Shown piece by piece: positions 27,423 to 43,389 of a stretch of 64,000 bases of DNA. Under the pieces are notes generated by a model. The model saw only the letters and a program-made list of their open reading frames with translations, was not told the origin of the DNA and did not search any database. Position 1 is the first letter of the stretch; every line of letters begins with the position of its first letter. The stretch comes from an uncultured Candidatus Binatia bacterium (GTDB taxonomy: Bacteria; Desulfobacterota; Binatia; UBA9968; JAJDTQ01). Position numbers and translations under genes: made by a program. Where the stretch lies: positions 1,728,001 to 1,792,000 of the forward strand of contig OZ243916.1 in assembly GCA_965213675.1 (NCBI GenBank). The letters are read 5' to 3'.

Positions 27423-29669
27423 TCAATTATCGGCAAAGAAGGGGCGAAACTTCTCGTAGAGGTCGCGCAGCCGCGCCTTGTAGTAGTCCACATTCTCGTC
27501 GGGGTGCTCGGGGTCCCATTCCGACACGTAGCGGCAGTTCTCGTTGACCGTAACGCCGGCGCCCTCGCCGGAGACATAGTAGGAGACCTGGTCCCCCGCC
27601 AGGTAACGGCGGTCCGAACGCAGCGCCACCTCATAGGCGCCGCGGGGGTGCTGTTTCCCGCCCTTGACCTTCATCTGGTACTCGTCCAGGGAGTCCCGCA
27701 GGGTTTCGGTGCGCTTCAGGAGAGACAGATCGAGGCGGTGGTGGGTCAGAGCCTCGCGGTAGTGCTCGTAAAGCGCCGGTATCTCGCCCTTCCGCCCGTC
27801 CATGAGCAGCCGGAGCATCTCTTCCAGCCACTTGCGCCGGTAACGCTCGAGGCCGCGGGAGTTGAACCGCGGGCCGTTCAGGGACAGCTCCCCCTTGTCA
27901 TCGAGCAGCGCATGTTCCCCGGCGCCGCAACAGAACATCGCCCGATAGCGCGCGAGGGGCAGGTTCAGCCCCCAGGGCAACGCCGCGGCCACCGCCGCAT
28001 TCACCATCGCTTCTTCCGCGGGACGCTCCATGATGTCCGCGGGAGGCACGAAATAAATGCCGCCGGACTCCATCGTGAGCACCCCGGCGCCGCGCGACTC
28101 CAGGCTTTCCGCCAGACGGCGCACGTGCTCGCACCCGGCGCGAGTCACATGGTCCGCGGCTTCGGGGTCGTTGAAGTGGACCGCGGACGCGGCCAGGTAT
28201 CGGTGCAGCGACTCCACGCACACGGCGAACGCCGCGCGCGCCGTGGCCATGAAGCGGGAAGCGTCCCGCTCCGGTGCGGCGTCGGCCACGAGCCCGGCCC
28301 CGTCCCGCAGGTCCTGGAACCCGCGCACCAATGCCGGGAAGACCTCGAGATCATCTGATCGAGGCCGGCAACGGCCGTGGCGCATGACCGCGGCATAGAC
28401 CGGGTCGAGTTCACAGTGAAGCACGCGCCGTGACACGCCCGCGACCCTCGATTCCGCCACCTTCCCGCTCACCCGCGCCGGGTTCGCCGGAACGGGCACG
28501 GAATGCCGCCGGGCATGGTATTCCCGGAGCATGAGCCGGTCGATGGCGGTGACATCGTCCATCAGCGGCGTGTCCTGGTAGCGGCACGGGAGGATACGCG
28601 CCTGGAGGAAGTAGCCCGGCGAAAGCACCGCGGAGATGGCGCGGGTTTCCCGCACGTCGTCGAGGGCGTAGCGGAAGAGCGTGTCCGGATCGTGGTCGAA
28701 GTACCAGTTCGCTTCGGCCCCATGTATGTACGTGCGCTCCGGCGCGGCCACGCCGAAGTGGCGCGCCACATCCTTCAGGCCGTTGCGCTGGAGCGCGCGG
28801 TCAGCGCGGCTGTAGCGTTGCGCCAGGAACCACGTATCGATGACGTGGCGCCCGTGGATCGCGTAGTTGGGAAACGGAATCACGCGGTCGTCCGCCTGGA
28901 AGCGCTCGGAACGCCGGCGTGGCGCGCTGCCATCCCGGCCCAGCGCGAGGCTGACACCGTACCGCCGGGCGCGCTCCTCCACATAAGGAAGGTCGAAGCG
29001 GAAGAAGTTGTGTCCCTCGATCACGTCCGGGTCCCGGCGGCGCACCTCCCGGACCATCTCCACCAGCATCGTTCCCTCGTCATGGTCCCTGCCCGACAGC
29101 AACCGCTCCCAGCCACTGCTGTCGGACATGGCGATGGCCGTGATGCGGTCCCCTTCGCGTCGCGCATTGGGGAACTCGAAGTCGGTGGTGCGGTACACCT
29201 CGAGGTCCACCTGCATGCGCAGGAGGCGGTCGAAGCGCATGCCCTTGAAGTGCGTCGTGCCGGACCCCACAAGATATTGCTGGACGGGGTCGCGCACCTG
29301 AAGGAACGGCAACCCGGGAGCGCCCTGACCCCTTCCGCTCTTGCGCAGAAGCCACGCTCGGGCGGATTCCAGGCTGTCCAAATCCGGGAAAAACGCCAGC
29401 CGCCGGAACCTGTGGGTCCCCGCGAGCGGCTCGATGCGGCATTCGCCCTTCCACCCCGCGAGCCGGTCCTCGGAGGTCAGCCAGAAGAATGGCTCGAACG
29501 GCACGGTGGTGGAGGAAACGGTGGTCGAAGAGTCGGGTGAAGGCTCCCTGGCGTAGATGCGGACCTGGCGCGGTCCCTCCAGCTCCACGGCCGTGACGGA
29601 AGGGGTGGCGTCACGGCCGAACAGGATCTGGGCGTCCGTGGGGATGTCCGTAGGGGTTGAAGCACACAT
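27423..29669 (-). CDS. Family-B DNA polymerase homolog: 3'-5' exonuclease motifs intact, polymerase motifs degenerate
   Basis: ExoI VDLEVY, ExoII GHNFFRFDLPY, ExoIII YALDDV. Palm motifs read HCELDPVYA, AVCVESLHRYL and MESGGIYF. Start codon uncertain. Confidence 0.85.
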   Translation of the reverse strand: MCASTPTDIPTDAQILFGRDATPSVTAVELEGPRQVRIYAREPSPDSSTTVSSTTVPFEPFFWLTSEDRLAGWKGECRIEPLAGTHRFRRLAFFPDLDSLESARAWLLRKSGRGQGAPGLPFLQVRDPVQQYLVGSGTTHFKGMRFDRLLRMQVDLEVYRTTDFEFPNARREGDRITAIAMSDSSGWERLLSGRDHDEGTMLVEMVREVRRRDPDVIEGHNFFRFDLPYVEERARRYGVSLALGRDGSAPRRRSERFQADDRVIPFPNYAIHGRHVIDTWFLAQRYSRADRALQRNGLKDVARHFGVAAPERTYIHGAEANWYFDHDPDTLFRYALDDVRETRAISAVLSPGYFLQARILPCRYQDTPLMDDVTAIDRLMLREYHARRHSVPVPANPARVSGKVAESRVAGVSRRVLHCELDPVYAAVMRHGRCRPRSDDLEVFPALVRGFQDLRDGAGLVADAAPERDASRFMATARAAFAVCVESLHRYLAASAVHFNDPEAADHVTRAGCEHVRRLAESLESRGAGVLTMESGGIYFVPPADIMERPAEEAMVNAAVAAALPWGLNLPLARYRAMFCCGAGEHALLDDKGELSLNGPRFNSRGLERYRRKWLEEMLRLLMDGRKGEIPALYEHYREALTHHRLDLSLLKRTETLRDSLDEYQMKVKGGKQHPRGAYEVALRSDRRYLAGDQVSYYVSGEGAGVTVNENCRYVSEWDPEHPDENVDYYKARLRDLYEKFRPFFADN

Positions 29670-29888
29670 GGTGGAGAGGCAGGTGGAACATCCTCCAGCG
29701 CAACACGGCCTCCGACTTCCGGTGCCGTATCGCGGACGTTTCTGTAACGGATTGCGCAGGAACTCTTGTTTTCGGCCAAGCGCCATGCCCTTCACGGGCG
29801 ACTTCCGTGCGAATCGGCAGCGTGGGGTAGTCCTGGAGACCAGGGACGTGACTGGTACAGCGTTGAACAGATGTGGTACACACCATAC

Positions 29889-30683
29889 ATGGACTCCGAC
29901 GCCGTGTCACCCGTCTCGCACATCCGCCGGCCCAATCTGCGGCAGCCGTTCCTGATCCTGTCGTTCTCCGGCTGGAGCGACGCCGGGTCGTCGGCCACTT
30001 CCGCCGTGCGATACCTTGTCGAGCAACTGCTGGCCACGGAGTTGGCCAAGATCGATCCCGAAGATTACTACGACTTCTCGGTTCACCGTCCCCAGGTGCG
30101 GCTGGTGGAGGGGCAACGGGAGATCGAGTGGCCTTCGTTCGATTTCCACTACTACAGGACCGGCGGCGAACTGGAGCGGGACTTCATCTTCGCCACCGGC
30201 GCCGAGCCGCACCTGCACTGGAAGGCCTTCGCCCGCACCATCATGGAACTCGCCCACGGCTGGAACGTGGCGCGCGTCATTACCATCGGGGCGCTTCTCG
30301 ACGAGGTCCTGTACACCAAGCCGGTGCCTCTCAACGGATTCTCATCGGACCCGGTGCTGATGAAGGAACTGGACTTCTCGCCGTCACGCTACCAGGGGCC
30401 CACCGGCATCGTGGGGATCCTCGGCGACACGTTCCGCAAGGCAGGCATGCCGCACGTGAGCCTGTGGGCGGCGTTGCCCCACTACCTGGCGCCGTCTCCC
30501 AACCCGCGCGGGACCCTGGCGCTGGTGCTGCGGCTGACCCAGTGGCTCGGCATCCGTATCGATACCGGTCCGCTGGAACGCGCCGCCGGCGAATTTCAGA
30601 ACAAGGTGAACGACGCGATCAACAATGACCCGAACCTGTCGGCTCTCATCCGGGAGCTTCAGAAACACGAGTTCGAGCAATAA
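29889..30683 (+). CDS. PAC2 family protein
   Basis: FSGWSDAG..A..AV.YL, DPEDYYDF...RPQV, GAEPHLHW, YQGPTGIVG, LWAALPHY...PNPRG. Confidence 0.88.
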   Translation: MDSDAVSPVSHIRRPNLRQPFLILSFSGWSDAGSSATSAVRYLVEQLLATELAKIDPEDYYDFSVHRPQVRLVEGQREIEWPSFDFHYYRTGGELERDFIFATGAEPHLHWKAFARTIMELAHGWNVARVITIGALLDEVLYTKPVPLNGFSSDPVLMKELDFSPSRYQGPTGIVGILGDTFRKAGMPHVSLWAALPHYLAPSPNPRGTLALVLRLTQWLGIRIDTGPLERAAGEFQNKVNDAINNDPNLSALIRELQKHEFEQ

Positions 30684-31489: not shown

Positions 31490-31978
31490 TCAGTGATCTT
31501 CGCCGGCCAGATCGAGAACGCGCCTGAATGTGGCTGGCGACAGCCGGAACCGCAATCTTTGCATCGCTTCCAATACGGGACCCACGGCGTCTACAAGCCC
31601 ACGTTCCTTTGCCAACAGCAGTATCCCCAAAGTACCCGTAACCTCCAGCCCCACGGCAACGGCGTGTCGCCGCGCGGCTCGGTCGTCCAACACCCGCAAG
31701 TGATCCGGGCTCTCCAGTCCCAAGGCGAGAACTTCCTTCTCTCCGTTACCCAAGCTGGTAACCAACGGCAGCAGAGTGCGGTCACGCACGGACCGCACCG
31801 CGACCCATGGCAGGTTGTCCGGACTCGGAAGGTTGACGCCGCGCCTCGCGCCCTCGGCAAGTTCCTGGACGACGGCCGAAGGGACCTGCACAGACACGAA
31901 CAGTTCCGGCAGGAGGCGGAGAAGTCCCGTCTGATGCAGGTACTGCAAAGGGGATGTGTTACAGATGACGTCGCGCAC
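31490..31978 (-). CDS. DUF3368 family PIN-domain protein (putative toxin)
   Basis: VICNTSPL, VPSAVVQEL, LGNGEKEVLAL, LDDRAARR, GTLGILLLAKERGL. Confidence 0.88.
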   Translation of the reverse strand: MRDVICNTSPLQYLHQTGLLRLLPELFVSVQVPSAVVQELAEGARRGVNLPSPDNLPWVAVRSVRDRTLLPLVTSLGNGEKEVLALGLESPDHLRVLDDRAARRHAVAVGLEVTGTLGILLLAKERGLVDAVGPVLEAMQRLRFRLSPATFRRVLDLAGEDH

Positions 31979-32225
31979 GGCTCACATCGCGTTGAAGCTC
32001 TTCCGACTCCAATTCAAACGTGTCCACTCCGTAGTCCGCCAGCTTCGTCAGGAACAGCGGCTTGGGCAGATCCGCCAACTCCGCCGCCCCCCCGGTCGAC
32101 AGGCGCCCCATCTCGCACAGCTTCACGGCGATCAAGAGCTTGGCTTCCTCACGGAACTCCTCTGCGGTCATACCCAGCGCCAGCAGCACATCGTCGCGAT
32201 AGTCGATAGTCAATGAACTCGCCAT
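31959..32225 (-). CDS. UPF0175 family protein (putative antitoxin)
   Basis: EAKLLIAVKL.EMGRLSTGGAAELA.L....FL..LADYGV; overlaps the DUF3368 start by 20 nt. Confidence 0.88.
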   Translation of the reverse strand: MASSLTIDYRDDVLLALGMTAEEFREEAKLLIAVKLCEMGRLSTGGAAELADLPKPLFLTKLADYGVDTFELESEELQRDVSRARRHL

Positions 32226-32267
32226 AGGGGATTCTCCAGCATTTCTCACCGCGTCCGAACACCTCCG

Positions 32268-35200
32268 CTATGGCGAGAGCGCCACCTGCGAAGGCCTGCT
32301 CTTCCCTTCCGTGAAATAAAACGCCTTGAACCGATCCAACAGTTTGATCTTGTCGATCAAGGCCCGCTCCTGTTGCGAGTTCGACACATTTCTCACCAGG
32401 AACTTCGCGTCTGAATCCGTACATCGTAGAATCAGATAGTTGGCTATGGCCGAAAACACCGAGGTATCGAAATCTCGTGCCTCCTGTGAAGCCACCACAA
32501 ATGAGATGCCGTACTTGCGGCACTCTTTTGCCATGGTGGGGATCAGCTTCAGGCGAGCAGCGCGATGCGCTTCATCAAAGACCAGCGCATGGGTTATCTG
32601 TTCCTGGATTCCTCGACGGAACATGTCCTTGTACAAGCCATAGAACACCAGACACGCAAAGGCTCGTTGCAGATTGTCGTTTTGCGTCGTGTGAATGCGG
32701 ATTACGACAGGAAGTTCACTGTCCCACAGACGACTGCCCATCTCGCCGTCATCGCCAAAGAAATCATAGTCGTCCAGTTCGCTCAAACGTGCCAGGAGGC
32801 TGCGCAACTCTCGGTCTGGTTTTTTCGTGTTCCGCAGAATATCCACGAAACGCCGAAACGGGGGCTCTGAAGAACCGGAGTCCGACCCCCATCCTGCTTC
32901 TTCAAAGCTCTCCTTGATGGCCCGCCGGATGTGATCGCCCTGAATGTCCCCAAGTTGAGGGTAAATCGCGCCGAAAATATCCCGCATGGCTCCGGCAACA
33001 TCCAGATGTGGCCTGGCGACGTCTCGGTCAATGACCCGCAATGGGTTGAACCCCAAGCCGTCAAAATCGATGAAGCGGACGGTTCCGACCGCTTCTTCCA
33101 ACCGCTGGTCAATATCTTGATGATAGGAGAACACGACTGGACGAATCTGCGCCGCGACCAATTGCCTGCACAAATTCACAAGGCAGGTGGTCTTGCCCAT
33201 GCCCGGCAACCCGGCGATCAACAAGTGCGGATTACCCTTCACACTGAGCGGCCAATGGACGTTGGTGTTTGTGAAGACATCTGTCCCCAGATTGACTGAA
33301 GCTTCACGTGCCTGGAAGCTTCGGCTGCCCTCTTCCGCCGTATTCACGTTCACAACGTCGTCGACTGGCGCCGACAGCGGAACGGCATCGGGCGTCTCGG
33401 GCTCATCCCCACCTCTGGAGCCCGCGTCGTTGGCTCGCCAGTTCGTTGACGTGGCGTGTATTTCCTCCGAGTCGGAAACACCGTCGGGCAGAAAGCTTGG
33501 ACCGAACAGAAACACACGAGTTCCCCAACGATCGGGGGATATCTCCAACGGAGCACGCTCGCCGTACTCGGGGCAGAACACCCACCCCCGGTCTCCGCTC
33601 GTCAGGGTAGAAATCGCATAATCTCCACCTTTTTCGATCATTTTGTCGATCTCGGAGACCAACTCCCTGTACCGTTCAGCGCGAAGATGATGCCTTTGCG
33701 CCTTGTCCGCGTAGAAACGCAAGACCCGAGCGAGCTTCGCACGTCTAATGGATCGAAAAGCGGAACATACGTTGTCGTGGCCATACCAGCCAACCCATCT
33801 CTCCCGAAGCGCTTGGACTTGTTGATTGATCCGCTGCAACAACTCCGTAGACCGAGCACTACGCAGATGACGACGGAATTTCACTTCAACGAACTGGAAG
33901 ACGAGCCCTTTGCGAGGGGCCGTCGTGACGAAAATGAGATCGGGGCGGGATGCTTTATCGTCGTCAGATTGATCCGCCGTTAACGGTGGGAGAAGGTCTC
34001 GCACATCATCGACCGGTACAATAAAACCATCCTTGAGCGGGAACCAACAGTCATTGTCTCGTGGAGGACTCATGCAATTGGCGTGAGCTACCGCGAGGGC
34101 GATCAGCTCCAACGTGGCCGAACGGTGACCTGTAAGGCGAATCGCGAGGCGACCACTGAGCGCCTTCAAGTGTTCAAGGAGAAACTCCGCATTGCGGCGA
34201 CTGTGGCTCAAGCCCATCTGATCCAGTGCCCGGTCAAGCAGATTGCGGACCTCGTCGAGATTGGTCGTGGACGTGATCAATTGGAGACAACCGAGATCCT
34301 CCCGCTCGGGCACACAATCGATGACGTAGGCGTCGTAAATTTCAGGATTGTCCCGGGGTGAATCGAAGTACTCCACGCCGGCGTTTCGGTCGAGGGTAAC
34401 GACCCAATCGCAGACATCATGAAGGTTACGAAGGCTTTCCGCCTTTTCGGCGGATATTTCGGTCGTCAAGACAGGAATGCCCCCGCTACCACCCAGGCGG
34501 CGGGCCACGGCGCCTTGTACGGCACGCTGAAGACTCAAGAGCGTCTCGGTATGCGTCCGGCGGGACGGATGCTTTTCCCCTACGGTGCCAGCGGGTAGGG
34601 TACTCAGCCACCGAGGCGAAGGGAGGCTGGTGTAGCGCCGCTGAAAAAAAGAAAGCAGCCCGAAGGCGTGGTATGGCTCGTGTGCCGGTACTTCCTGTGT
34701 CGCCCCAATACAGACCCTCGACTCAAAGCTGTCGAACGCAACGGCTATGTGCGCGGCGGTTTGCGGATTCTGGTCAACCTTGCGCGACCAACGTAGTCGC
34801 GGCACCGTAACCCCGCCCGGCAGATTCAGAGACTCCAACATCCAGCGATCCTCGGGAGCTAGAACCCCCGACCCGCTGCGACGTTTTTCGCGTGCCTCCG
34901 CGATAAACCGACCCGCTACTCCGCGCTGTCCCTCCGAAGGGTAAAGGTCGAGTGAAAACACTGGAACCGCGACCGCCCGCGTCTCATCATCCGGTTCGTC
35001 TCCGATTCCTTCGGCCTCTTGGTAGTGTTTGTGAACTCCCCCCAAAGACCGGGCGACGGTCAACCCATCGCCGGCTCGGAGCGCGTGGACATGGAGAAAG
35101 CGGGCGAGATACGCGGAGCCCTCAACATCACCGTCCGCGGTGTGGCAGTCCAGATATCTGACGATCTCGTCTCGCAAGACATTCGCACTCTGTCTCCCGG

Positions 35201-37286
35201 TTGTAGGGGCCGTGTCACCAGCTTCTCCGTCGCCGAGTGCCCGCTCCAGGATCGTTATCGCTGCCTTGGGTTCCATGTCTGAATCCGGCACCATTCCCAC
35301 TGCGTAAAACCCCAGCGTGTCGGCGAAAACAAACGTGCCGCCCGAAGGATTGGGAAGAAAGGCCGGAAACATGGCGCCGTCCAACCCCGAGAATTCTCCA
35401 AGAATCTCCTTAGGGCGCTGGTTTTGTCTGAAGCGAGCATTGAAAACAAGATTGTCATACGCGACATGCCATGCAATTCTCAGTGGATGCGCGGGCAGCA
35501 CGATGAGACCAAGAGTTCGCCCCGATAACGATTGAACCTCGACAGTGTGAACGAGACTCAACAGCGGGTCACCCTCCTTCAACAAGCCATCCCAAGCCCG
35601 CAGATATTCCCGTACGACTCCGAAATTTTCCGCGGCTTCATCATATATCTGCGCAACTCCACCTCCCCCATCAAAACGCTCCGCCATTTTGCGACTGGCC
35701 GAAGCTGCCTGCACACAGGCTTCGTCTTCCTGGTGAGGTAACTCGTGAAAGACAGGAGCCTCGGCTCGGCTGCCCGTCGCCCGCACCTTCACGGTCCACC
35801 TTCCGATTGCGCCTTGCGCATCATTCCACTGTTTTTCCGCCTCGGCGATCAAGGATGGCCGATAAACCCGGAAGCTCTTGATCCTTCCGTTGTCCTTCCG
35901 CATTCGCCGAAGCACGAATCCCTTGGAATCGACGGCGGTAACCGGGGACACAGCGACCGCGGTCACCGATTCTCTGTCTTCAGACTCAACGATACCCTCG
36001 CTGAATGTCCGGACTTTGACACCAGCGCCGCCCGAATCCTGAATTTCAGGATTGCCGAACCGGATTTGGATTTCCTCGGTTTCCTCTGCGACTTCCTGTA
36101 CACCGACAACCTCCACGACCGCCTTGGCGGACAAAACGACGTCGTCATCAAGAGTTGAGAAGTCGTCGTTGCTGAACCGACACTTCTCCCCGCCCTTTCG
36201 CGCAAGGTGAGCGATCTCTTTGACGACAACGTCTTCATCCAAAGCCGTACGGATGGAGACACGGAACTGGGCCGCGTGCTTGGCCAGATTGATCGGGTCC
36301 GTCTTCCATCGCACCTCCAGCATCGGGTCGGGTCCGGCAGCACTCGGATCCGAACTCAAGAACAAAACGGGCGGTTCGTCATCCTCCGTACGCTCGGTCA
36401 AGCCGGACCACTTGGCGACGGCACCATTGCGGTTCCGCCAAGAAGCCAACTCGACGCCTTGTATCGAATCCGCCGAACCCTGGGTTCGAAGTTCGCCAAC
36501 CCAGAGATGCCGCCGATTCGCCAATTCTTTCAGTCCCGTCAGCAACGGCTTGGTATCCACCTCATTGAGGAAACCCTCCAGTTCACCGACCTTGGGCTCT
36601 GCTTCTTTGTCAAGCCGCAAAGCATCGATGCGCGCAGCCGGTGCCAAATTCGCGACGGCCGCACTGAGCAGATGTCTTACAAACATGCGAGACGTCTTCA
36701 AATCCTCCGGATTGCCGTCATCCGCATCCAAGACCGGCCACAACCCGATCAAATGCAGATAGGCGCCCGGTGTCTGTGTCTGATTGCCAGATGCAACATG
36801 ACAGAGAAACTTGAACTCCGCCCAAGGTGGTACGCCGTGAGCCCCTCCATACCCTCGTGCCGTCTTGATCGCTTGTTCCGCGTAGCGACGTCTCGCCGCT
36901 GAATGACGGCTGGTAATTTCACCGGCCGCCAACCGAAGCGCCTGCCCAAACAATGTAGACTCGTCCACCTCCCGGCCAGCACTGTAGATACCGTCCATGC
37001 CAGCACCTGCACGCTCGCTATCAACCAGCAGCAGTATCGCTGCCGTCTTTGCTTCGCGTCGTTCCACAGCCTGGTCCGCAGTGATCGTCCGGATGTCTGA
37101 ACGGGCCTCATCCGCAACGCGCAGAACCTGCCAACCGCGTGGCGTAAACGAGGCATCGGCGGCCAACGCTTCGATGACGTTGGGACCCAGACACCGCACG
37201 AAGGCCACGGCACCGTTCTCTGGTTCACCAAGGACACTCCGAAACGCTTCCGAAAGCACCGCCCCGTGAACAGGAGTCCAACTCAT
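32268..37286 (-). CDS. Large defence ATPase with PD-(D/E)XK nuclease motif and C-terminal HerA/FtsK-type ATPase (MAD8/DndH-like)
   Basis: 1672 aa. RPDLIFV...FVEVKFR nuclease signature; NPHLLIAGLPGMGKT Walker A; LVFDEAHR Walker B; KECRKYGISFVVASQ. Confidence 0.8.
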   Translation of the reverse strand: MSWTPVHGAVLSEAFRSVLGEPENGAVAFVRCLGPNVIEALAADASFTPRGWQVLRVADEARSDIRTITADQAVERREAKTAAILLLVDSERAGAGMDGIYSAGREVDESTLFGQALRLAAGEITSRHSAARRRYAEQAIKTARGYGGAHGVPPWAEFKFLCHVASGNQTQTPGAYLHLIGLWPVLDADDGNPEDLKTSRMFVRHLLSAAVANLAPAARIDALRLDKEAEPKVGELEGFLNEVDTKPLLTGLKELANRRHLWVGELRTQGSADSIQGVELASWRNRNGAVAKWSGLTERTEDDEPPVLFLSSDPSAAGPDPMLEVRWKTDPINLAKHAAQFRVSIRTALDEDVVVKEIAHLARKGGEKCRFSNDDFSTLDDDVVLSAKAVVEVVGVQEVAEETEEIQIRFGNPEIQDSGGAGVKVRTFSEGIVESEDRESVTAVAVSPVTAVDSKGFVLRRMRKDNGRIKSFRVYRPSLIAEAEKQWNDAQGAIGRWTVKVRATGSRAEAPVFHELPHQEDEACVQAASASRKMAERFDGGGGVAQIYDEAAENFGVVREYLRAWDGLLKEGDPLLSLVHTVEVQSLSGRTLGLIVLPAHPLRIAWHVAYDNLVFNARFRQNQRPKEILGEFSGLDGAMFPAFLPNPSGGTFVFADTLGFYAVGMVPDSDMEPKAAITILERALGDGEAGDTAPTTGRQSANVLRDEIVRYLDCHTADGDVEGSAYLARFLHVHALRAGDGLTVARSLGGVHKHYQEAEGIGDEPDDETRAVAVPVFSLDLYPSEGQRGVAGRFIAEAREKRRSGSGVLAPEDRWMLESLNLPGGVTVPRLRWSRKVDQNPQTAAHIAVAFDSFESRVCIGATQEVPAHEPYHAFGLLSFFQRRYTSLPSPRWLSTLPAGTVGEKHPSRRTHTETLLSLQRAVQGAVARRLGGSGGIPVLTTEISAEKAESLRNLHDVCDWVVTLDRNAGVEYFDSPRDNPEIYDAYVIDCVPEREDLGCLQLITSTTNLDEVRNLLDRALDQMGLSHSRRNAEFLLEHLKALSGRLAIRLTGHRSATLELIALAVAHANCMSPPRDNDCWFPLKDGFIVPVDDVRDLLPPLTADQSDDDKASRPDLIFVTTAPRKGLVFQFVEVKFRRHLRSARSTELLQRINQQVQALRERWVGWYGHDNVCSAFRSIRRAKLARVLRFYADKAQRHHLRAERYRELVSEIDKMIEKGGDYAISTLTSGDRGWVFCPEYGERAPLEISPDRWGTRVFLFGPSFLPDGVSDSEEIHATSTNWRANDAGSRGGDEPETPDAVPLSAPVDDVVNVNTAEEGSRSFQAREASVNLGTDVFTNTNVHWPLSVKGNPHLLIAGLPGMGKTTCLVNLCRQLVAAQIRPVVFSYHQDIDQRLEEAVGTVRFIDFDGLGFNPLRVIDRDVARPHLDVAGAMRDIFGAIYPQLGDIQGDHIRRAIKESFEEAGWGSDSGSSEPPFRRFVDILRNTKKPDRELRSLLARLSELDDYDFFGDDGEMGSRLWDSELPVVIRIHTTQNDNLQRAFACLVFYGLYKDMFRRGIQEQITHALVFDEAHRAARLKLIPTMAKECRKYGISFVVASQEARDFDTSVFSAIANYLILRCTDSDAKFLVRNVSNSQQERALIDKIKLLDRFKAFYFTEGKSRPSQVALSP

Positions 37287-39094
37287 GTTTCTTCGAGCCT
37301 TCCCGGTTGGAAGCGCGGCTGAAGGCGCTTCATTGCTTCGGCGTCGTTGACGCCAACCAAAAGACCGAGGTCACGCAAACGGCGTTCCAGAACCGCTCGG
37401 TTCGCGTGAAGAAGTTCGTTGGAGACATCCATGCCCCGCGGGGCCACATCGACGTGAAAGCCGTGGCGAATTCGGATCGAATCCAAAAAATCCTTCAACG
37501 AAATGGGACGTATGCCCGCCCTGCTGCTTGGTGGAAGGAGGTGGAGGTGAACCAGGTAATCAAGAACCGCATCGGTAAAAACCAATGAACGGACTTCCCG
37601 TGGACGTCGCCCGGACCGCAGTGCGTCGGCACCACCGGTCGTCTTCCGTTTCCGAGCCAGTCCGTTGGGGCGATCAATGTTGATTGTCGAATCTAGCATG
37701 GAAAACGTGTTGCTTCGTGAACTCCTGCCCAGGAGCGGCGTCAACGCGGTGGCCAGACGCAGAATTGGATTCGGTAGGTTCGCCTCGTTGCCGAGCGTAG
37801 CCGCAGCCTCAGGATAGTCTTCCTTCAATGCCTCGGCGAGCTTCTCCCCAAGCTCGTCCAGTTGACGATGCACGAAGGACGCCTCGCCGTGCCGGTCGTA
37901 AAGCACGTCGCCCAGAAGATTGATCCATTCAGTTGCATAGGGGCGTTGAGGAGGCATCTGCTTCTTGATCCTGCGATTGTCACTGGCTGCGTAGTCCAAC
38001 AACCTCAGCATCATGAGTTTTTCCGGCACGCGCTCGACACGGCGCGTCAGGTCGTCCATGGACCGCTCGGCCAGCGAACGCAACCGCCGGTCGACACCGA
38101 TGGAGCAGTCAACAAGAACATCCGCGGGACGTTCTTCGTCACCCTCGGCCACCCGGCCTGTCTCAGCCCATTGCAACAGGATTTCGACGACACTTGTGAA
38201 AACGGCCGTCATTCCCGTCGCGATACAGGCTTCGACAAGTTCGACAAATGCCTGTCGCGGAACCACCCGCGCATAGGCCCGAACGAACCGTCGAATGTCC
38301 TCGGAAAAGTGACGCGATGCCTCCCTGGCAACGGGATGCTGGTTCGAGATACGGTCACCGTCCTTGCCTCTGGCCTTGTCCGGTGCATGGCCGAGTTGTT
38401 GAGCTAACCGTATCATCAGCAATTGGTCGAGGCCGATTCCCTGATTCGATTCGTCAAAATGATCGCCATTGCGGTTGGCCCTGATTGCGTCGCGCTCGAT
38501 ACCTTGGCTAAATGCTTTCAAGAGCAGGTTCTTCTCGTAGTGTGTCGCCACAGGGAACCACGACTTGTCGGTCTTCTGCGGTGGCTCGACATACTCGCCG
38601 TCTTGATTCGCAAGCATCGCCACAATCATCTCGGGCACGAAGCGAAGATGCGCGGCGGACTCCGGGAGATCTATCCAACTCGACATGTAATGCGCCGGCG
38701 CAACCCGCTGGATCTGCTTGTCTCTTCCGAGGTCGTTTCTAGAATTTTCCAAACAGTAACAGAGCAGAAGATCCCCAAGAATGGCCTTCTCGGTCCGGTC
38801 ATTGAAACCGCGAAATTTCGAATCAGAGGCGAGCCTGTCTGCCACTCTCTCCACCGTCGCCGCTCGTCTCCTCTCCGCAGGCGTTCCGGCCGTCGGAGCA
38901 AACGTCGCCAAAAACTGGCCGCGACCACGCCGATCTCCGAACCGAAACATATAAAGGACCGCCGGAAGGATCGCCGAGAGTTGAAAGTCGTTGACAGAAA
39001 TGGGTAGCGCCTTGTCGTACTGAGCAGACCAGATCGCGTCCGCCATCTGCTTGGGAAGTACATTCCGAACGATGTCCCGAGCGCTACCCGGCAT
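37283..39094 (-). CDS. Uncharacterised defence-associated protein (MAD7/DndG-like position), 603 aa
   Basis: AAGGAG RBS overlaps the upstream stop; ATGA overlap with the downstream gene. C-terminal FLDSIRIRHG...LERRLRDLGLL.GVNDA winged-helix-like end. Confidence 0.7.
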   Translation of the reverse strand: MPGSARDIVRNVLPKQMADAIWSAQYDKALPISVNDFQLSAILPAVLYMFRFGDRRGRGQFLATFAPTAGTPAERRRAATVERVADRLASDSKFRGFNDRTEKAILGDLLLCYCLENSRNDLGRDKQIQRVAPAHYMSSWIDLPESAAHLRFVPEMIVAMLANQDGEYVEPPQKTDKSWFPVATHYEKNLLLKAFSQGIERDAIRANRNGDHFDESNQGIGLDQLLMIRLAQQLGHAPDKARGKDGDRISNQHPVAREASRHFSEDIRRFVRAYARVVPRQAFVELVEACIATGMTAVFTSVVEILLQWAETGRVAEGDEERPADVLVDCSIGVDRRLRSLAERSMDDLTRRVERVPEKLMMLRLLDYAASDNRRIKKQMPPQRPYATEWINLLGDVLYDRHGEASFVHRQLDELGEKLAEALKEDYPEAAATLGNEANLPNPILRLATALTPLLGRSSRSNTFSMLDSTINIDRPNGLARKRKTTGGADALRSGRRPREVRSLVFTDAVLDYLVHLHLLPPSSRAGIRPISLKDFLDSIRIRHGFHVDVAPRGMDVSNELLHANRAVLERRLRDLGLLVGVNDAEAMKRLQPRFQPGRLEET

Positions 39095-39104
39095 GACCAA
39101 CTCC

Positions 39105-42100
39105 TTACGAATCCGTCGGTTCGAGCACCAACCGCTGGGAAGACGTGGTGCCCGCGTCTCCGTCAACGTCGACGAAGATTTCAAAGACCGTGTCCTTCAT
39201 CGGATTCCATGCAAACATCCGGCGATCATCCTCCTGAAGCAAGCGCTGCACGAAGATCGACAAATGCGCAAATACATCGTCCGTGGCCACGTCACCCAAC
39301 TGATAACCCTCGGCAAGTTCCAGGAGCAGATGAAAGAGTTCGGCGCCGAGTCGCAGCCGCTCTTCATTACCGTTCCCGTACACGTAGATGAGAGAAACTT
39401 GCCTGTGAAGTTGTTCGACGCCCTCACCGACGTCCGGCAGGTCCACTTCCAGGCGGAAACGATCCAGCGGTTTCTCTACCCAGAAAACTGTCTCGGTCGG
39501 CGTTCGCGGCGTGATCTGGAGTGGCACGCCAGTTTCTCGCTCCAACGCCTCCCGTGGCAGGGTCTCCAGGCGAGAGATGCCGTCGCAGAGTCTCTCCGTC
39601 AGTTGCCGCCTTTGATCTCCATTGTCGCTTGTGGCCAAATCAAGAAACTCACGCAGATGACGCCCACGAGCCACGCCCAGGGTGTGTGGATCGCCTGTGA
39701 GCCGCTGGATGTCCGTCTCCGACCATTCGAAATAGGCGCGCCGCCTTGCCGCAGCCAAGGGCAACCCGCTGTAGTGCGGTGGTCTTTCTTCATCTTCCGG
39801 ATCCAGCGTTTGCAACAATCGCCGGTCCAGTCGCGGATGCGCTTCGAGGCCAGGGTCAAAACGCGCCAGGTCTCGAAGCACTTCACCTTGCCTACCAGTG
39901 GATACCGGAGAAAATGCTCGCTCCGCATAGGACTGGGGAGGTGGTTTCTCGTCTGCGTCTTCGCCGTTGGAACCCGCGTGATAATCGTGGCAGTAATGAA
40001 GCCCGAACAGGACGTAGACCAACGCAGCCCGCAATTCACGAACGGTGATATGGGTCTCACCACGGAGATGAACCGCCTGTAAGGCGCAAAACAGACTTGC
40101 CCGGGCACGTCTGCGGAGATGTCCTTCTGCCAGTTCACCCGGCCCAAAAATCCGGGTTGCCCGGAATACCTCGCAACGATCTTGCGACGAGCATGTGTGA
40201 CATGGGGCCCAATGCGTCGCGGCAAGTTCGCCACCATAAAGACTATCCAGTAGCCGATCCAAAAAACTATCGTCGACACTCCTGCCATCTGTGGCGCGGC
40301 TGCCGACCAAAGAGCGCAGGTTTAGATTCACGAAGCGGATATGGGGACTTTCCAGGACAGAGTCGCCTCCAAGGAAGGCACGAAGGTCTTTCGTCAACGG
40401 CGTATCGCCGCCCCGCTCTTCGACACTCTCAATCCATTCCAGTAGACGACCATCATTGATCGCCAGCAGGTGGGCCACATCCTCGCTCGGTCGCCCGTGT
40501 TGAAACGGCTCCAGGAACTCGTCCAGAATCTCGTCGGCAGACCGGTCCCTCCAGGAAGCCGAGCCATCCAGGTTCAGGCGTACAGTCAGGGTATTGCTCA
40601 ATGTACCTGTCAAGATGCGACTTGCGGAGGTCTGAGTACCCAGCCCGAATTCTCGGGCGAGATATTGGAGGAGCGCAGTCTTCCCGTCGCCGGCGTTGCC
40701 GCAAAGAATAACGAGGCTGACCTGCCGATCCTGTACCGCCCGATACAGCGCCTGTTCAAGTCTGGTTTCAACGTAGGTGCCAACCGCAAATTCGGAATCG
40801 AGACCCCTGGTCTCGGAATTTCCCCAACGTGAGCCCGGATACGACTGTAACAGCGACTTGAGCCAAGGCACCTCGTTCTCTTGTCGTTGTGTCGGCAAGG
40901 CGACACTCGGAGTTCCTCGATCCGTCCTTGCCGTCGCATCGACGCCATCGCCGTCTTCTTGTGCAACACTGCTTCCGCTGCTCTCTCCCCGGTCTGCTTG
41001 CTCACTCAGGGCCGCCAAGGCGTCTGCTGTGTTTCCGAATCTCCTCGCTGGGTCCGGGTCCGTGGCGCGATCCAGAAAGGCCGCCAACATCGGAAATTCT
41101 TCACGCTCTGACCCTTGCCACTTGAGACCACGCTCCTTCGCCAGCCCTCCGTCATATTGAAACGGCTCCCTATCCAGCAGCACGTGAAAGAAACTGGCTG
41201 CCAGAGCATAGAGATCGTCGGATGGGGTGCTGACGCGTCCTTGACTGCCATATGGCGCGCAATACAGCATGGTGCCAGGCATTTCCGCCTGTGCGCCGAT
41301 CTTCGTTACGCAGTCGTAATCCGTCAACACCAGCTCATGTCCCGAAACAATCAGATTGCGGGGGCTGACGTCGCCATGGACCAAGCCATTGCCGTGCAGC
41401 GTGCCCAACGCTTCACACGCCACACGGAGCCACTGAATGGCCAATCCTTCTCCTGAAACGTCGCCCAAGTCGTCAGCGAGGATCGGCAGCACCCCCGTGT
41501 ACTCGCTCAACGGCATACCCTCTACCCATGTCAACAAGGCCACAAAGCCGTTATCTTGCCACTCGGGAGCCACTTCAAAGATCGTCGAAAGAGCGGTATG
41601 GCGAAGATGCGAGCGCGCCAACTCATGGGCTCTCGCCACACGGCGCCCGGTCACTTCATCGCGAACCACTTTGGCGACGTACGTGCCCAGTTCATCCTTT
41701 GTCTCGCGGTGGATTCCGGTCACCTTGTACGTTGTTCCCACACCTCCGGAACCCAACCGTGATACGATACGGTACTGCTGACCACGGAAAGGGATTACTT
41801 GATCTTCAGTCCAGTACCGTGATGCTGGAGGCGGCGTGTCGCATTCGCCATGGCCTGACACTTTCGATAGCGCGGCTTCCAGGTCCGATAGACTACTTCG
41901 CGCCTCGGAAGCCTCCGCCAATCCCTTGTCCAGCACGGCCGCAACGCTGATGCCGATGTCATCCGGTTCGTCGTGGAACAGGGTGCTCAGTGTCGCACAG
42001 AGCGAAAATACGTCTGATCGTTGATTGGCAACTCCCTTTCCGTGGGAGCGTACCTCGGGCGCGGTCGTAGATTCGCGGTCTTCGGCAGCCAACTCGGATG

Positions 42101-43166
42101 TAGACGTAACCGTGACGTGCCCCGGTATCCTCGTGTGCTCGAACCCCGTCAAGATCGGGGTGTTGTCATGCTTTACAAGAACCGTTCCCCCGTTGAGGTT
42201 TCGATGAATCATGGGTTGGTCGGCCGTGCCGGCTTCATGCATCTCACGCAAGGCCGTCAGGGCTTGACGTGCGAAGCTCAGGCGGCCATTCACGTTCCAG
42301 GAGTGGTCGGCAGACCTTTCTTCAAGGGTGGGTGTTGCCGGATCAGCAATAGTGAAGAATTTGACCTCACCCGTGAATCCGCGAGCGTCCTGGAAAGAAT
42401 CGACGATGCGTGGCGCCCAAGCGTACTGTTGCAACCGGCGTAGAGCCTCCCACTCCCGTTCCGCTTTCTTGGCGGCATTCGCTTCGTCGCTGTCCGTCAT
42501 ATCGTAAAGATGGAGGATCACGCGCTCTTGCCGTGCCGAATGCGTCGCCTTGTAGACTCGGTGGAATCGCTCCGTTGCAGGCGATTGCAGTACGAGGTGC
42601 GTATAACCGTCAAGATTCTTTATCTGGCCATCCATCGCCACAACGTTCCGCGGCGTCAATGTTCGTCCCAAGGCACTGATCTGCTCCGGCGACAGTATAC
42701 TAGGCAGTTCCAACCCCACTGCATCGCGCCAAGTGTTGAACGTGTGGAATGAAACGCCATGAATGGGCTCTCTTGCCTCAAGGGTCTTGACTTTCGAAGC
42801 GTCCTCCGTGACCAGAAACACACCATCCACACGGGGAAGATGCGGCACCTTTCGCCGCAGGGCCGTACCCATCTTCCGTGCCTTGCTGGTTACCCGATCC
42901 GCTTCTTGTTCGACGGCTTGAGGGTGCCGATTGACCCACGCCGCCGTCCAATGTTTGACTTCGATGACGCGGACTCCGGGAGGACCGATTACGACGATAT
43001 CAATCTCGTCAGACTGAAGCCGTTCATTAACGGAGAAGAGCAAGTTCGTAAGCAACAACCAATTGCCATCACCCTCGTGGCCAATCAAGCGAGTCTTGAG
43101 TTGCGCAATGGCTCGGCGTTCGCTTTCGTTGACGGCCGGGCCGCAGGGAATTATATCTGTCTTCAT
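39105..43166 (-). CDS. NERD nuclease - pseudokinase - Ser/Thr kinase - P-loop ATPase fusion (MAD6-like; PglW-like N-terminus, DndF-like C-terminus)
   Basis: NESE...EIDIVVIGPPGVRVIEVKHW (NERD). Kinase 1: IHRNLN and LTGFE. Kinase 2: LGSGGVG, VAK, VHGDVSPRN, LTDYD. ATPase: ILCGNAGDGKT, LLAINDGRL, CHTC...C. Confidence 0.85.
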   Translation of the reverse strand: MKTDIIPCGPAVNESERRAIAQLKTRLIGHEGDGNWLLLTNLLFSVNERLQSDEIDIVVIGPPGVRVIEVKHWTAAWVNRHPQAVEQEADRVTSKARKMGTALRRKVPHLPRVDGVFLVTEDASKVKTLEAREPIHGVSFHTFNTWRDAVGLELPSILSPEQISALGRTLTPRNVVAMDGQIKNLDGYTHLVLQSPATERFHRVYKATHSARQERVILHLYDMTDSDEANAAKKAEREWEALRRLQQYAWAPRIVDSFQDARGFTGEVKFFTIADPATPTLEERSADHSWNVNGRLSFARQALTALREMHEAGTADQPMIHRNLNGGTVLVKHDNTPILTGFEHTRIPGHVTVTSTSELAAEDRESTTAPEVRSHGKGVANQRSDVFSLCATLSTLFHDEPDDIGISVAAVLDKGLAEASEARSSLSDLEAALSKVSGHGECDTPPPASRYWTEDQVIPFRGQQYRIVSRLGSGGVGTTYKVTGIHRETKDELGTYVAKVVRDEVTGRRVARAHELARSHLRHTALSTIFEVAPEWQDNGFVALLTWVEGMPLSEYTGVLPILADDLGDVSGEGLAIQWLRVACEALGTLHGNGLVHGDVSPRNLIVSGHELVLTDYDCVTKIGAQAEMPGTMLYCAPYGSQGRVSTPSDDLYALAASFFHVLLDREPFQYDGGLAKERGLKWQGSEREEFPMLAAFLDRATDPDPARRFGNTADALAALSEQADRGESSGSSVAQEDGDGVDATARTDRGTPSVALPTQRQENEVPWLKSLLQSYPGSRWGNSETRGLDSEFAVGTYVETRLEQALYRAVQDRQVSLVILCGNAGDGKTALLQYLAREFGLGTQTSASRILTGTLSNTLTVRLNLDGSASWRDRSADEILDEFLEPFQHGRPSEDVAHLLAINDGRLLEWIESVEERGGDTPLTKDLRAFLGGDSVLESPHIRFVNLNLRSLVGSRATDGRSVDDSFLDRLLDSLYGGELAATHWAPCHTCSSQDRCEVFRATRIFGPGELAEGHLRRRARASLFCALQAVHLRGETHITVRELRAALVYVLFGLHYCHDYHAGSNGEDADEKPPPQSYAERAFSPVSTGRQGEVLRDLARFDPGLEAHPRLDRRLLQTLDPEDEERPPHYSGLPLAAARRRAYFEWSETDIQRLTGDPHTLGVARGRHLREFLDLATSDNGDQRRQLTERLCDGISRLETLPREALERETGVPLQITPRTPTETVFWVEKPLDRFRLEVDLPDVGEGVEQLHRQVSLIYVYGNGNEERLRLGAELFHLLLELAEGYQLGDVATDDVFAHLSIFVQRLLQEDDRRMFAWNPMKDTVFEIFVDVDGDAGTTSSQRLVLEPTDS

Positions 43167-43389
43167 CGTGACACCTGCCCCAATGTCCGCGAACAAGTCT
43201 CAATCGTGTTCATGGTCGGTGAACGTAACAGAAGCCGGCAACAGCTATCCACTTGTCCTCCAAACGCCCGTTCCGGTTCCTCCAGTCGAGAAATGGGGCG
43301 CCAGGTCCCATCATTCTGTGTGTTGCCGGACCTGGCTACGCGATGCCGACATCATTGACATCGGGTCATTTCCGTCAGTGGGGTCGCCA

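Follow-up and report, generated by a model that had tools for sequence, protein, structure and literature searches.

A Candidatus Binatia family-B DNA polymerase homologue with a degenerate polymerase site and a conserved proofreading exonuclease

Introduction

What is a DNA polymerase kept for once its polymerase site has been lost? The question is raised by a single gene in a 64,000-nucleotide stretch of the genome of an uncultured Candidatus Binatia bacterium (contig OZ243916.1, positions 1,728,001 to 1,792,000). We refer to this whole stretch as the window, and all coordinates are positions within it unless another contig is named. The gene, here called polB, lies on the minus strand and encodes a homologue of the family-B DNA polymerases (PolB). 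An earlier note on the same DNA had described the product as a full-length PolB in which the three exonuclease motifs are complete and every polymerase motif is substituted, and had proposed that it is repurposed rather than decaying. We suggest, from comparison of sequences, that the protein is probably a primer-end-binding 3'-5' exonuclease that remains permanently in editing mode.

Bacterial PolB proteins have been sorted into groups. In the surveys, as far as excerpts of PMC12926913 and PMC7544198 go, G1 and G3 have conserved polymerase and exonuclease sites and G2 (PolB2) is exonuclease-dead. G3 is called experimentally uncharacterised, and is credited with a beta-clamp motif in addition to its two conserved sites (PMC12926913, in part).

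A full-length reading frame with a substituted polymerase site

In 24 of the 25 loci from this genus, the aligned start is the polB ATG at 29669; an alternative, longer frame would start at a GTG at 29795. Domain limits were taken from alignment with archaeal PolB and from the secondary structure of an AlphaFold2 (AF2) model, and the parts of the gene are as follows.

27423..29669, minus strand: polB-like coding sequence, 748 codons plus the stop (27423-27425), translated without internal stops
29247..29669, minus strand: N-terminal domain, part 1, residues 1-141, from the Pyrococcus abyssi PolB alignment and AF2 secondary structure
28635..29246, minus strand: DEDDy-type 3'-5' exonuclease domain, residues 142-345, matching PF03104 (E 1.3e-9)
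29199..29207, minus strand: Exo I, D155-L-E157; D-x-E in 121/121 aligned proteins and 31/31 genome loci
28992..29009, minus strand: Exo II, N221-FFRF-D226, of the GHN type, from the alignment of proteins and genome loci
28656..28670, minus strand: Exo III, Y334-ALD-D338, from the alignment of proteins and genome loci
28497..28634, minus strand: N-terminal domain, part 2, residues 346-391, by alignment to the archaeal PolB domain plan
28341..28496, minus strand: palm, part 1, residues 392-443, with a degenerate motif A
28389..28415, minus strand: motif A remnant CELDPVYAA, residues 419-427; CDVTSLYPS in active relatives
28191..28340, minus strand: fingers, residues 444-493, with a degenerate motif B
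28200..28226, minus strand: motif B remnant AVCVESLHR, residues 482-490; KILINSFYG in active relatives
27927..28190, minus strand: palm, part 2, residues 494-581, with a degenerate motif C
28059..28070, minus strand: motif C remnant ESGG, residues 534-537; DTDG in active relatives, the second Asp being replaced by Gly
27426..27926, minus strand: thumb, residues 582-748, containing the KxY remnant
27909..27926, minus strand: KxY remnant GAGEHA, residues 582-587, within the thumb

PF03104 was the sole Pfam domain returned for the 748-aa protein (38.3 bits against a cut-off of 23), and the polymerase domain PF00136 gave no match even at E<=1. A palm-fingers-thumb module homologous to that of PolB is present, as seen in both sequence alignment and structure comparison. 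The best sequence match among solved structures is P. abyssi PolB (4flt, E 3.8e-17), which covers residues 197-407 and 478-730, the second stretch reaching E 4.7e-6 with phmmer. The alignment bears out the earlier description: Exo I, II and III are all located in a frame free of stops, and each of the polymerase motifs A, B, C and KxY carries substitutions; the coordinates given for them had been correct to within a few bases. ESGG lies under DTDG, and AVCVESLHRY under KILANSYYGY. Glu420 of CELD sits exactly at the position of the motif A Asp, so that the change there is from Asp to Glu and the charge is not lost; Glu534, by alignment only, stands where motif C has its first Asp. In solved family-B polymerases the metal ligand is the second Asp of this motif, which is Gly here.

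The catalytic carboxylates of an active PolB, namely the motif A Asp and the second Asp of DTD, were therefore not found as such, their places being taken by Glu420 and E-S-G. The same is true of the residues that bind the deoxynucleoside triphosphate (dNTP) and the primer end (K..NS.YG of motif B, and KxY), which read AVCVESLHR and GAGEHA and are lost throughout the genus. Nor is the protein a stand-alone exonuclease devoid of palm, fingers and thumb, of the kind presumably represented by the Pfam families DNA_pol_B_exo2 and RNase_H_2, since the full-length polymerase body is retained.

In the AF2 model, built from a 64-row alignment, the complete PolB domain plan is recovered with a mean predicted local distance difference test score (pLDDT) of 81.4 and a predicted template-modelling score (pTM) of 0.82, and the PolB fold is retained as far as the prediction goes. 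The pLDDT drops below 50 at residues 652-725 (the thumb tip), at residues 315-323 and over the first nine residues. The highest-ranked Foldseek match in the PDB was the editing-mode complex of P. abyssi PolB (4flu, E 2.4e-29, template-modelling (TM) score 0.71 over about 800 columns), with the replicative-state KOD and 9°N complexes below it (TM 0.66-0.67). We considered this ranking as a hint of editing mode and rejected it, the gap being too small for evidence.

Polymerase motifs are eroded throughout the genus

Of 8000 candidates scored in a word-indexed search, 1209 proteins passed E<=0.001, and the best 120 of the 1209 were aligned with the query (P0001) to give 121 rows. The query and its close group, at 64-99% identity to it, make up 31 of these (P0001-P0029, P0054 and P0066), and the precomputed Pfam annotation gives them no domain but the exonuclease. 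Another 89 rows, at 47-53% identity, have both Pfam domains and canonical motifs: CDVTSLYPS, KILINSFYGYLG, (I/V)E(I/V)DTDGIY and SYKMKNYALL. The remaining row, P0087, is differently degenerate. D-x-E, N-x4-D and Y-x3-D are retained in every row and at all 31 genome loci. The combination of a kept exonuclease and a lost polymerase site, shared by 31 rows of the 121-row alignment and by 25/25 genus loci, is on this comparison far beyond chance.

Among the 25 genus loci, the motif B Asn, the motif B Tyr and both KxY lysines are kept in none, and the KxY Tyr in four. The second motif C Asp survives at one locus (L005) and is lost in 30 of the 31 clade proteins. Erosion has gone less far at two other positions: motif A position 420 is Asp in 19 loci and Glu in six, and the motif B Lys is kept in 19. 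The focal gene has Glu at the former and Ala at the latter, and its product is a member of the most eroded subclade. The six active-form loci are canonical at all scored positions of motifs A, B, C and KxY. This distribution is consistent with an old inactivation, after which the former catalytic positions went on drifting. At L005 (genome G016, protein P0005) motif C reads D-S-D while motifs A, B and KxY stay degenerate; the second Asp there is probably a chance Gly-to-Asp change.

The exonuclease is as constrained as in active relatives

Selection was measured per domain on a codon alignment of 31 loci, 25 of the dead form and six of the active form, by maximum likelihood (ML) under GY+F3X4 on fixed protein trees. 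For the exonuclease, the ratio of nonsynonymous to synonymous change (dN/dS, or omega) is 0.070 in the dead form and 0.068 in the active form, with column-bootstrap ranges of 0.056-0.084 and 0.045-0.080, respectively. The other domains differ between the forms: 0.201 against 0.075 for the palm, 0.312 against 0.071 for the fingers, 0.109 against 0.063 for the thumb, and 0.144 against 0.105 for the N-terminal domain. For palm and fingers together, the 2.5-97.5% bootstrap interval is 0.202-0.291 in the dead form (25 replicates) and 0.055-0.105 in the active form (40 replicates). The picture was stable in two six-sequence sub-samples, in the outer clade alone and in the five closest loci alone. 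Nei-Gojobori estimates (NG86) for those five loci ranked the domains as ML did, with higher values (exonuclease 0.18, palm 0.35, fingers 0.37).

We also counted the sites conserved in at least 95% of the 89 active proteins, and scored each as retained when 90% or more of the 31 dead-form proteins had kept it. Retention was 90/111 in the exonuclease, 29/51 in the N-terminal domain, 41/85 in the thumb, 22/69 in the palm and 4/28 in the fingers. Among the conserved sites lost are K459 and R463 of the fingers, N486 and Y489 of motif B, E532, T535 and D536 of motif C, and K582, K584 and Y586 of KxY.

The constraint on the exonuclease is thus unchanged relative to active relatives. The polymerase half is relaxed about three- to four-fold, with losses concentrated in dNTP-binding and catalytic residues, and it is far from neutral. 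The protein is selected and repurposed, and is not a pseudogene. This is what the earlier note had proposed; the neutral decay of the polymerase half that the per-domain comparison of 25 orthologues could have revealed was not seen (palm 0.20, fingers 0.31). Its view that the thumb is well formed holds for sequence conservation (omega 0.11) and does not extend to the predicted structure of residues 652-725, for the low pLDDT already given.

Descent from active G3-type polymerases

Excerpts of PMC7544198 give a Glu in motif C as a synapomorphy of bacterial G3, archaeal B10 and PolEpsilon-N, and GWN in Exo II as a signature of the Pol II clade. The active sisters of the focal protein, at 47-53% identity, have the G3 Glu, which stands two residues N-terminal to DTD (IEVDTDG), and they nest around it with Shimodaira-Hasegawa-like approximate likelihood ratio test (SH-aLRT) support of 98-100. 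IEVDTDG in the active relatives, together with a GHN rather than GWN Exo II, makes the family G3-type. The focal protein, which has Thr at the position of the hallmark Glu, as has most of its clade, is on these motifs G3 by descent and has the hallmark no longer. The trees held no named G3 reference sequence, and the assignment rests on the motif criterion. Two other placements were considered and rejected. Membership of the Pol II-like clade (G1) is contradicted by GHN in Exo II and by the Pol II equivalog models of NCBIfam, which score at most 42 bits against cut-offs of 570-1435 (NF004421, 42.3 against 570). As for PolB2 (B2/G2), intact Exo I and III with degenerate polymerase motifs are the opposite of what defines that group, in which Exo I lacks conservation, Exo III is missing and the polymerase domain is relatively conserved.

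A tree of 32 rows (IQ-TREE, LG+G4, quick search), rooted on six more distant active homologues, recovered the genus clade as monophyletic (SH-aLRT 100), with the degenerate pair P0122 and P0087 as its sister (99). The two degenerate subclades together adjoin the active P0030 (99), within an active Binatia-type group (98-100). The most economical reading of this topology would be a single loss of the polymerase site before the two degenerate subclades split. The stem branches of the dead clades are long (0.15, 0.25 and 0.34 changes per column).

The distribution of the gene was followed in 41 genomes: that of the window, 24 others of its genus, five of a sister family (f2) and 11 of another (f3). 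All 24 other genus genomes have one uninterrupted copy, at 60-83% identity to the query. The GTDB family consists of this single genus, and one copy is held by 28/28 species genomes, the window's own included, with one copy split by a contig break. Family f2 has a copy in 5/5 genomes at about 50% identity. Family f3 has one in only 2/11 (50% and 43% identity, the latter partial), so that loss of the gene is possible in this order. These sister families keep the canonical motifs, and PF00136 is found in 5/5 and 2/11 of their genomes, respectively. PF00136 was found in none of the 24 other genus genomes and not in the window's own, a metagenome-assembled genome (MAG) that is 97.7% complete with 8% estimated contamination, and PF03104 matches only the polB-like gene there. 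No active PolB paralogue is therefore available as a partner, and the suggestion in the earlier note that the protein assists one does not hold.

The dead form also sits where the active form does. The adjoining gene is:

29766..30680, plus strand: divergent PAC2-family gene (PF09754, E 1.1e-51)

It adjoins polB in 8/8 genus regions and in the 4/4 active-form regions compared, so the dead form occupies the same chromosomal position and is a positional orthologue. We take the PAC2 gene as a marker of positional orthology and do not claim it as a partner.

Proofreading and other polymerases in the same genome

Which polymerases could such a protein serve? The DnaE1 of this genome has a PHP region closest to those of Mycobacterium tuberculosis DnaE1 (5lew, E 7.5e-72) and Thermus aquaticus Pol III alpha. 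Every metal-binding motif that we checked by eye in this PHP domain is present. In Mycobacterium and Thermus replicases the PHP domain proofreads, and the replicase in this order probably does so as well. PF00929 (DnaQ/RNase T) had no match in the window's genome, against matches in 11 of 14 control genomes. The dnaQ model TIGR00573 matched in six of the 41 sampled genomes, four of them above the cut-off, and not in the window's own. It was absent from f2, where PolB is active (0/5), and from f3, where PolB is mostly missing (0/11). As sister families with an active PolB, or with none, are equally poor in DnaQ, the lack of DnaQ does not account for the inactivation.

The genome also holds DnaE2, in a cluster with lexA and an imuB-like gene, as well as DinB and Pol I. 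The Pol I locus (L052, G000:C1:2890787-2891902) was unmatched by PF01612, the PolA 3'-5' exonuclease domain, at E<=0.001, and its proofreading domain may be degenerate. The accessory polymerases thus appear to lack proofreading, which would be a setting in which a free-standing, junction-binding 3'-5' exonuclease is useful. PF01612 matches only an RNase-D-like open reading frame (ORF) and its duplicate in this genome. The two matches, at C8:17141-17635 and C1:2759482-2759976, have identical scores on two contigs, which suggests a duplicated or redundantly assembled segment in the MAG.

Compensation for the loss by DnaE2 was considered and rejected: a second DnaE-type gene occurs in 18/24 genus genomes, 2/5 of f2 and 10/11 of f3, unrelated to the state of PolB. 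A dnaE2-type gene shares a contig with the polB orthologue, at a distance of 18-30 kb, in 14 genus genomes; the distance is about 45 kb in G005 and 1.6 Mb in the genome of the window. The linkage amounts to loose synteny rather than an operon.

Neighbouring genes and candidate control elements

Apart from PAC2, the neighbours of polB encode a glutathione-reductase-like oxidoreductase, cytochromes c and c', and a urate-oxidase-N-like membrane protein. They are metabolic or respiratory genes, conserved within the genus only, and no gene resembling Cas4 is among them. An operon or partner gene was therefore rejected, PAC2 being alone in its conservation beyond the genus and flanking active forms too. 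The clamp-binding motif [QN]xxL[FL] was looked for in the last 25 residues, internal motifs not being systematically searched, and was found in 0/31 clade members and 11/89 active relatives. The processivity that had been suggested for the exonuclease is thus unsupported. Membership in a defence system was likewise rejected, as only a weak PADLOC 'HEase' match to the Exo II stretch was returned and the gene is core to the genus.

Three short elements were noted beside the gene.

29864..29878, minus strand: 15-nt conserved element between polB and PAC2, some 10-25 nt ahead of the likely PAC2 start (29889)
29737..29752, minus strand: upstream element, approximately ATCTG(G/T)TA..A, about 30-80 nt 5' of the polB start codon
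27389..27401, minus strand: weak terminator-like hairpin, 22 nt past the polB stop codon (1 site against 1.6 expected in shuffles)

The first is unique in the genome at <=1 mismatch, with look-alikes in most of the 25 genus loci. The second, which may be an extended -10 promoter region, fits a loose pattern in 19 of the 25 loci; the pattern was derived from the same sequences, and the count is descriptive only. The promoter and terminator scan of the polB locus gave nothing above chance.

Outside the window, at G000:C1 ~3386650-3392700 (locus L046), lie lexA, an ORF with a weak IMS match resembling imuB, and dnaE2. A perfect inverted repeat at the lexA start, with 9-nt arms and a 4-nt spacer, is unique in the genome at <=1 mismatch and is a candidate LexA operator of Binatia. 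At <=2 mismatches the palindrome has 10 matches genome-wide, none of them near polB, and SOS control of polB is thus unsupported.

Other lineages with a kept exonuclease and a lost polymerase site

Exhaustive phmmer searching of 1.84 billion cluster representatives returned 1772 relatives at E<=0.001. Of 149 newly returned representatives, 34 were dropped for length, and the 115 of 600-1000 aa were aligned with five earlier rows, giving 120. Rows were classed by the six exonuclease positions and the two catalytic Asp.

Exonuclease kept, polymerase kept: 62/120 rows
Exonuclease lost, polymerase kept: 39/120 rows
Exonuclease lost, polymerase lost: 10/120 rows
Exonuclease kept, polymerase lost: 9/120 rows

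The last class consists of three rows from the focal clade together with P0122, P0142, P0148, P0152, P0182 and P0229. On a FastTree tree the state requires at least four changes, and the well-supported branches alone force four; FastTree joins long branches readily, so this count is approximate. Beside the focal lineage, the state is found in three others: P0148/P0182, P0142/P0152 and P0229. Within the G3-like family (P0122-P0270), exonuclease-dead, polymerase-intact forms are common, and doubly dead forms occur.

Full-text literature searches turned up no published account of a bacterial PolB that is polymerase-dead and exonuclease-live; such members may be listed in the survey supplements, which those searches did not cover.

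A low-GC island near polB

A separate feature of the window is a stretch at 32268-43196, minus strand, whose guanine-plus-cytosine (GC) fraction is 0.56-0.60 against 0.63-0.70 in the flanks. It holds three large ORFs. That of 1672 aa has no Pfam match, and its C-terminal 350 residues are DndH/HerA-type ATPase-like (PADLOC, E 1e-21); that of 633 aa is unmatched in Pfam and PADLOC; and that of 1363 aa has NERD and protein kinase domains and is MkoA-like (PADLOC, E 1.6e-32) and SspF/DndF-like. The stretch looks like an uncharacterised defence island. At its edge is an overlapping pair whose arrangement resembles that of toxin-antitoxin genes.

31490-31975 and 31959-32246, both minus strand: overlapping pair of UPF0175 (PF03683, E 2.9e-20) and DUF3368 (PF11848, E 1.1e-16) genes

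Discussion

How might a polymerase body without a polymerase site be of use? We suggest that an active G3 PolB in the ancestor of one Binatia family would have lost nucleotide binding and catalysis, and that the polymerase architecture as a whole would have been retained after that loss, along with a DEDDy exonuclease under full constraint. The thumb and the remaining palm would grip the primer-template junction and, with no functional polymerase site competing for it, the 3' end would pass to the exonuclease site, where 3' termini that are mismatched, damaged or blocked would be trimmed and then released to another polymerase. Candidate sources of such termini would be the proofreading-less DinB, ImuB/DnaE2, and the Pol I that has no PF01612 match. 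We favour this editing-only role because thumb, palm and N-terminal domain are under purifying selection and the exonuclease is fully constrained, while dNTP binding and a catalytic Asp have been lost. It implies an exonuclease that is presumably active, a protein that should bind primer-template DNA, and substrates that would be the ends left by other enzymes. A broader proposal is that family-B polymerases repeatedly become editing-only enzymes whose body just holds the junction, and that in DnaQ-less Binatia these act as trans-proofreaders or 3'-end cleaners for DinB, ImuB-DnaE2 and possibly Pol I; this we offer tentatively, and doubt rather more than we believe.

Several known systems can be set beside the focal protein. 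With the bacterial G3 PolB (EpsilonN-like) it shares domain order, length and a GHN-type Exo II, and it nests inside active members and has the same PAC2 neighbour; its clade differs in lacking motifs A, B, C and KxY, the hallmark Glu and the C-terminal clamp motif. E. coli Pol II (G1) is likewise a bacterial accessory PolB with a DEDDy exonuclease. The exonuclease of Pol II can edit errors of other polymerases in trans, and we propose a functional analogy with the focal protein. Pol II differs in having an active polymerase, and its PDB match to our protein is at E 9e-5, compared with 4e-17 for archaeal PolB. The classical 'inactivated' PolB2 is reportedly that of Rogozin in 2008. PolB2 (Dpo2) resembles the focal protein in being a B-family sequence that departs from the catalytic consensus, and it is a non-replicative accessory enzyme. 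According to PMC8764526 and PMC7544198, however, PolB2 has neither Exo motifs nor exonuclease activity; it retains motifs A and B together with a single motif C Asp, and is a robust polymerase. The focal protein, which keeps the exonuclease and loses the polymerase motifs, is its mirror image, and the archaeal PolB2 precedent that the earlier note had cited runs the opposite way. PolEpsilonC, which makes up the C-terminal half of Pol epsilon in eukaryotes, is another complete PolB module that selection maintains although its polymerase site is dead. Its exonuclease is inactivated too and it is a fused CMG scaffold (PMC7544198, in part), whereas the focal protein stands alone and has an intact exonuclease.

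Several points weigh against an editing-only enzyme. Positions 420 and 534 are acidic (Asp or Glu) in 25/25 genus loci, so that a metal site or a structural role survives there. PolB2 was itself called dead from sequence and yet polymerises (PMC8764526). The thumb tip, which would help to hold the junction, is modelled at low confidence, and the active-form omega values come from six loci only. We found no clamp motif, operon partner or SOS operator linking the protein to a pathway, and the intact-looking DnaE1 PHP leaves no obvious gap in replicative proofreading to fill.

The first two of these points speak for a cryptic polymerase, a slow or specialised extender that would work through non-canonical residues, for example Glu420 with Glu534 or Asp422. 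The steric-gate Tyr425, which is mostly kept, the D-S-D of the genus member L005, and the primer-independent PolBs, which function with one motif C Asp (PMC7544198, in part), also speak for it. The precedents, though, apparently keep the second motif C Asp (excerpts of PMC7544198 name the first Asp as missing for primer-independent PolBs only), and it is this second Asp that is lost here in 24/25 loci. The dNTP-binding set has gone with it (motif B Asn and Tyr 0/25, KxY lysines 0/25, K459 and R463 lost), the replaced positions are mostly variable with no fixed new residue, omega in the fingers is up 4.4-fold, and the motif A Asp and motif B Lys are still eroding within the genus. We therefore regard a cryptic polymerase as improbable. 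Purifying selection on palm, thumb and N-terminal domain would suit a non-catalytic scaffold or DNA-end binder whose exonuclease residues serve its fold or its binding of DNA rather than hydrolysis, and structural, inactivated PolB modules do exist, PolEpsilonC being essential in yeast (PMC7544198, in part). Derivatives of the PolEpsilonC type, however, have a degenerate exonuclease site too (same source, in part), whereas the six scored DEDDy-motif positions are all kept here and omega for the exonuclease is the same in both forms (0.070 and 0.068). Of possible partner genes only the neighbouring PAC2 is conserved, and it flanks active forms as well; this explanation, too, seems to us to have a small chance of being right.

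Could the protein instead edit the errors of DnaE1, as a replicative proofreader in trans that replaces the DnaQ epsilon subunit? The window's genome matches neither PF00929 nor TIGR00573, the latter found in 6/41 genomes, and DnaQ-less bacteria may use non-canonical proofreaders, all Chlorobi having a G3 PolB (PMC12926913, in part). But the DnaE1 PHP looks intact and is nearest to those of M. tuberculosis DnaE1 and T. aquaticus Pol III alpha, DnaQ is equally absent from the sister families in which PolB is active (0/5) or missing (0/11), and the C-terminal clamp-binding motif is found in 0/31 clade members, so that we think a replicative role unlikely. Finally, a polymerase domain that Pfam does not recognise, in a MAG with a contamination estimate of 8%, might be put down to a decaying pseudogene, a mis-assembly or an annotation artefact. 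The frame is uninterrupted in 28/28 genomes, one being split solely by a contig break, omega is far below 1 in every domain, and synteny is conserved; the chance that the gene is such an artefact is negligible. An editing-only exonuclease accordingly remains the explanation that we prefer among those considered.

These proteins are named 'DNA polymerase II' or 'DNA polymerase domain-containing protein' in databases, so that inventories of Binatia and other carriers would count a polymerase that is almost certainly unable to polymerise. A family-wide lineage that has lost the polymerase site and kept the exonuclease, together with at least three more independent ones, would add a functional class that is the mirror image of PolB2. 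The locus also offers what is in effect a natural separation-of-function allele: between sister families whose proteins are about 50% identical, one architecture is found both with a polymerase site and stripped of it. Comparison of the two forms could show what share of palm, fingers and thumb is required simply to bring a 3' end to the exonuclease, and whether DnaQ-less bacteria have exonucleases that edit in trans.

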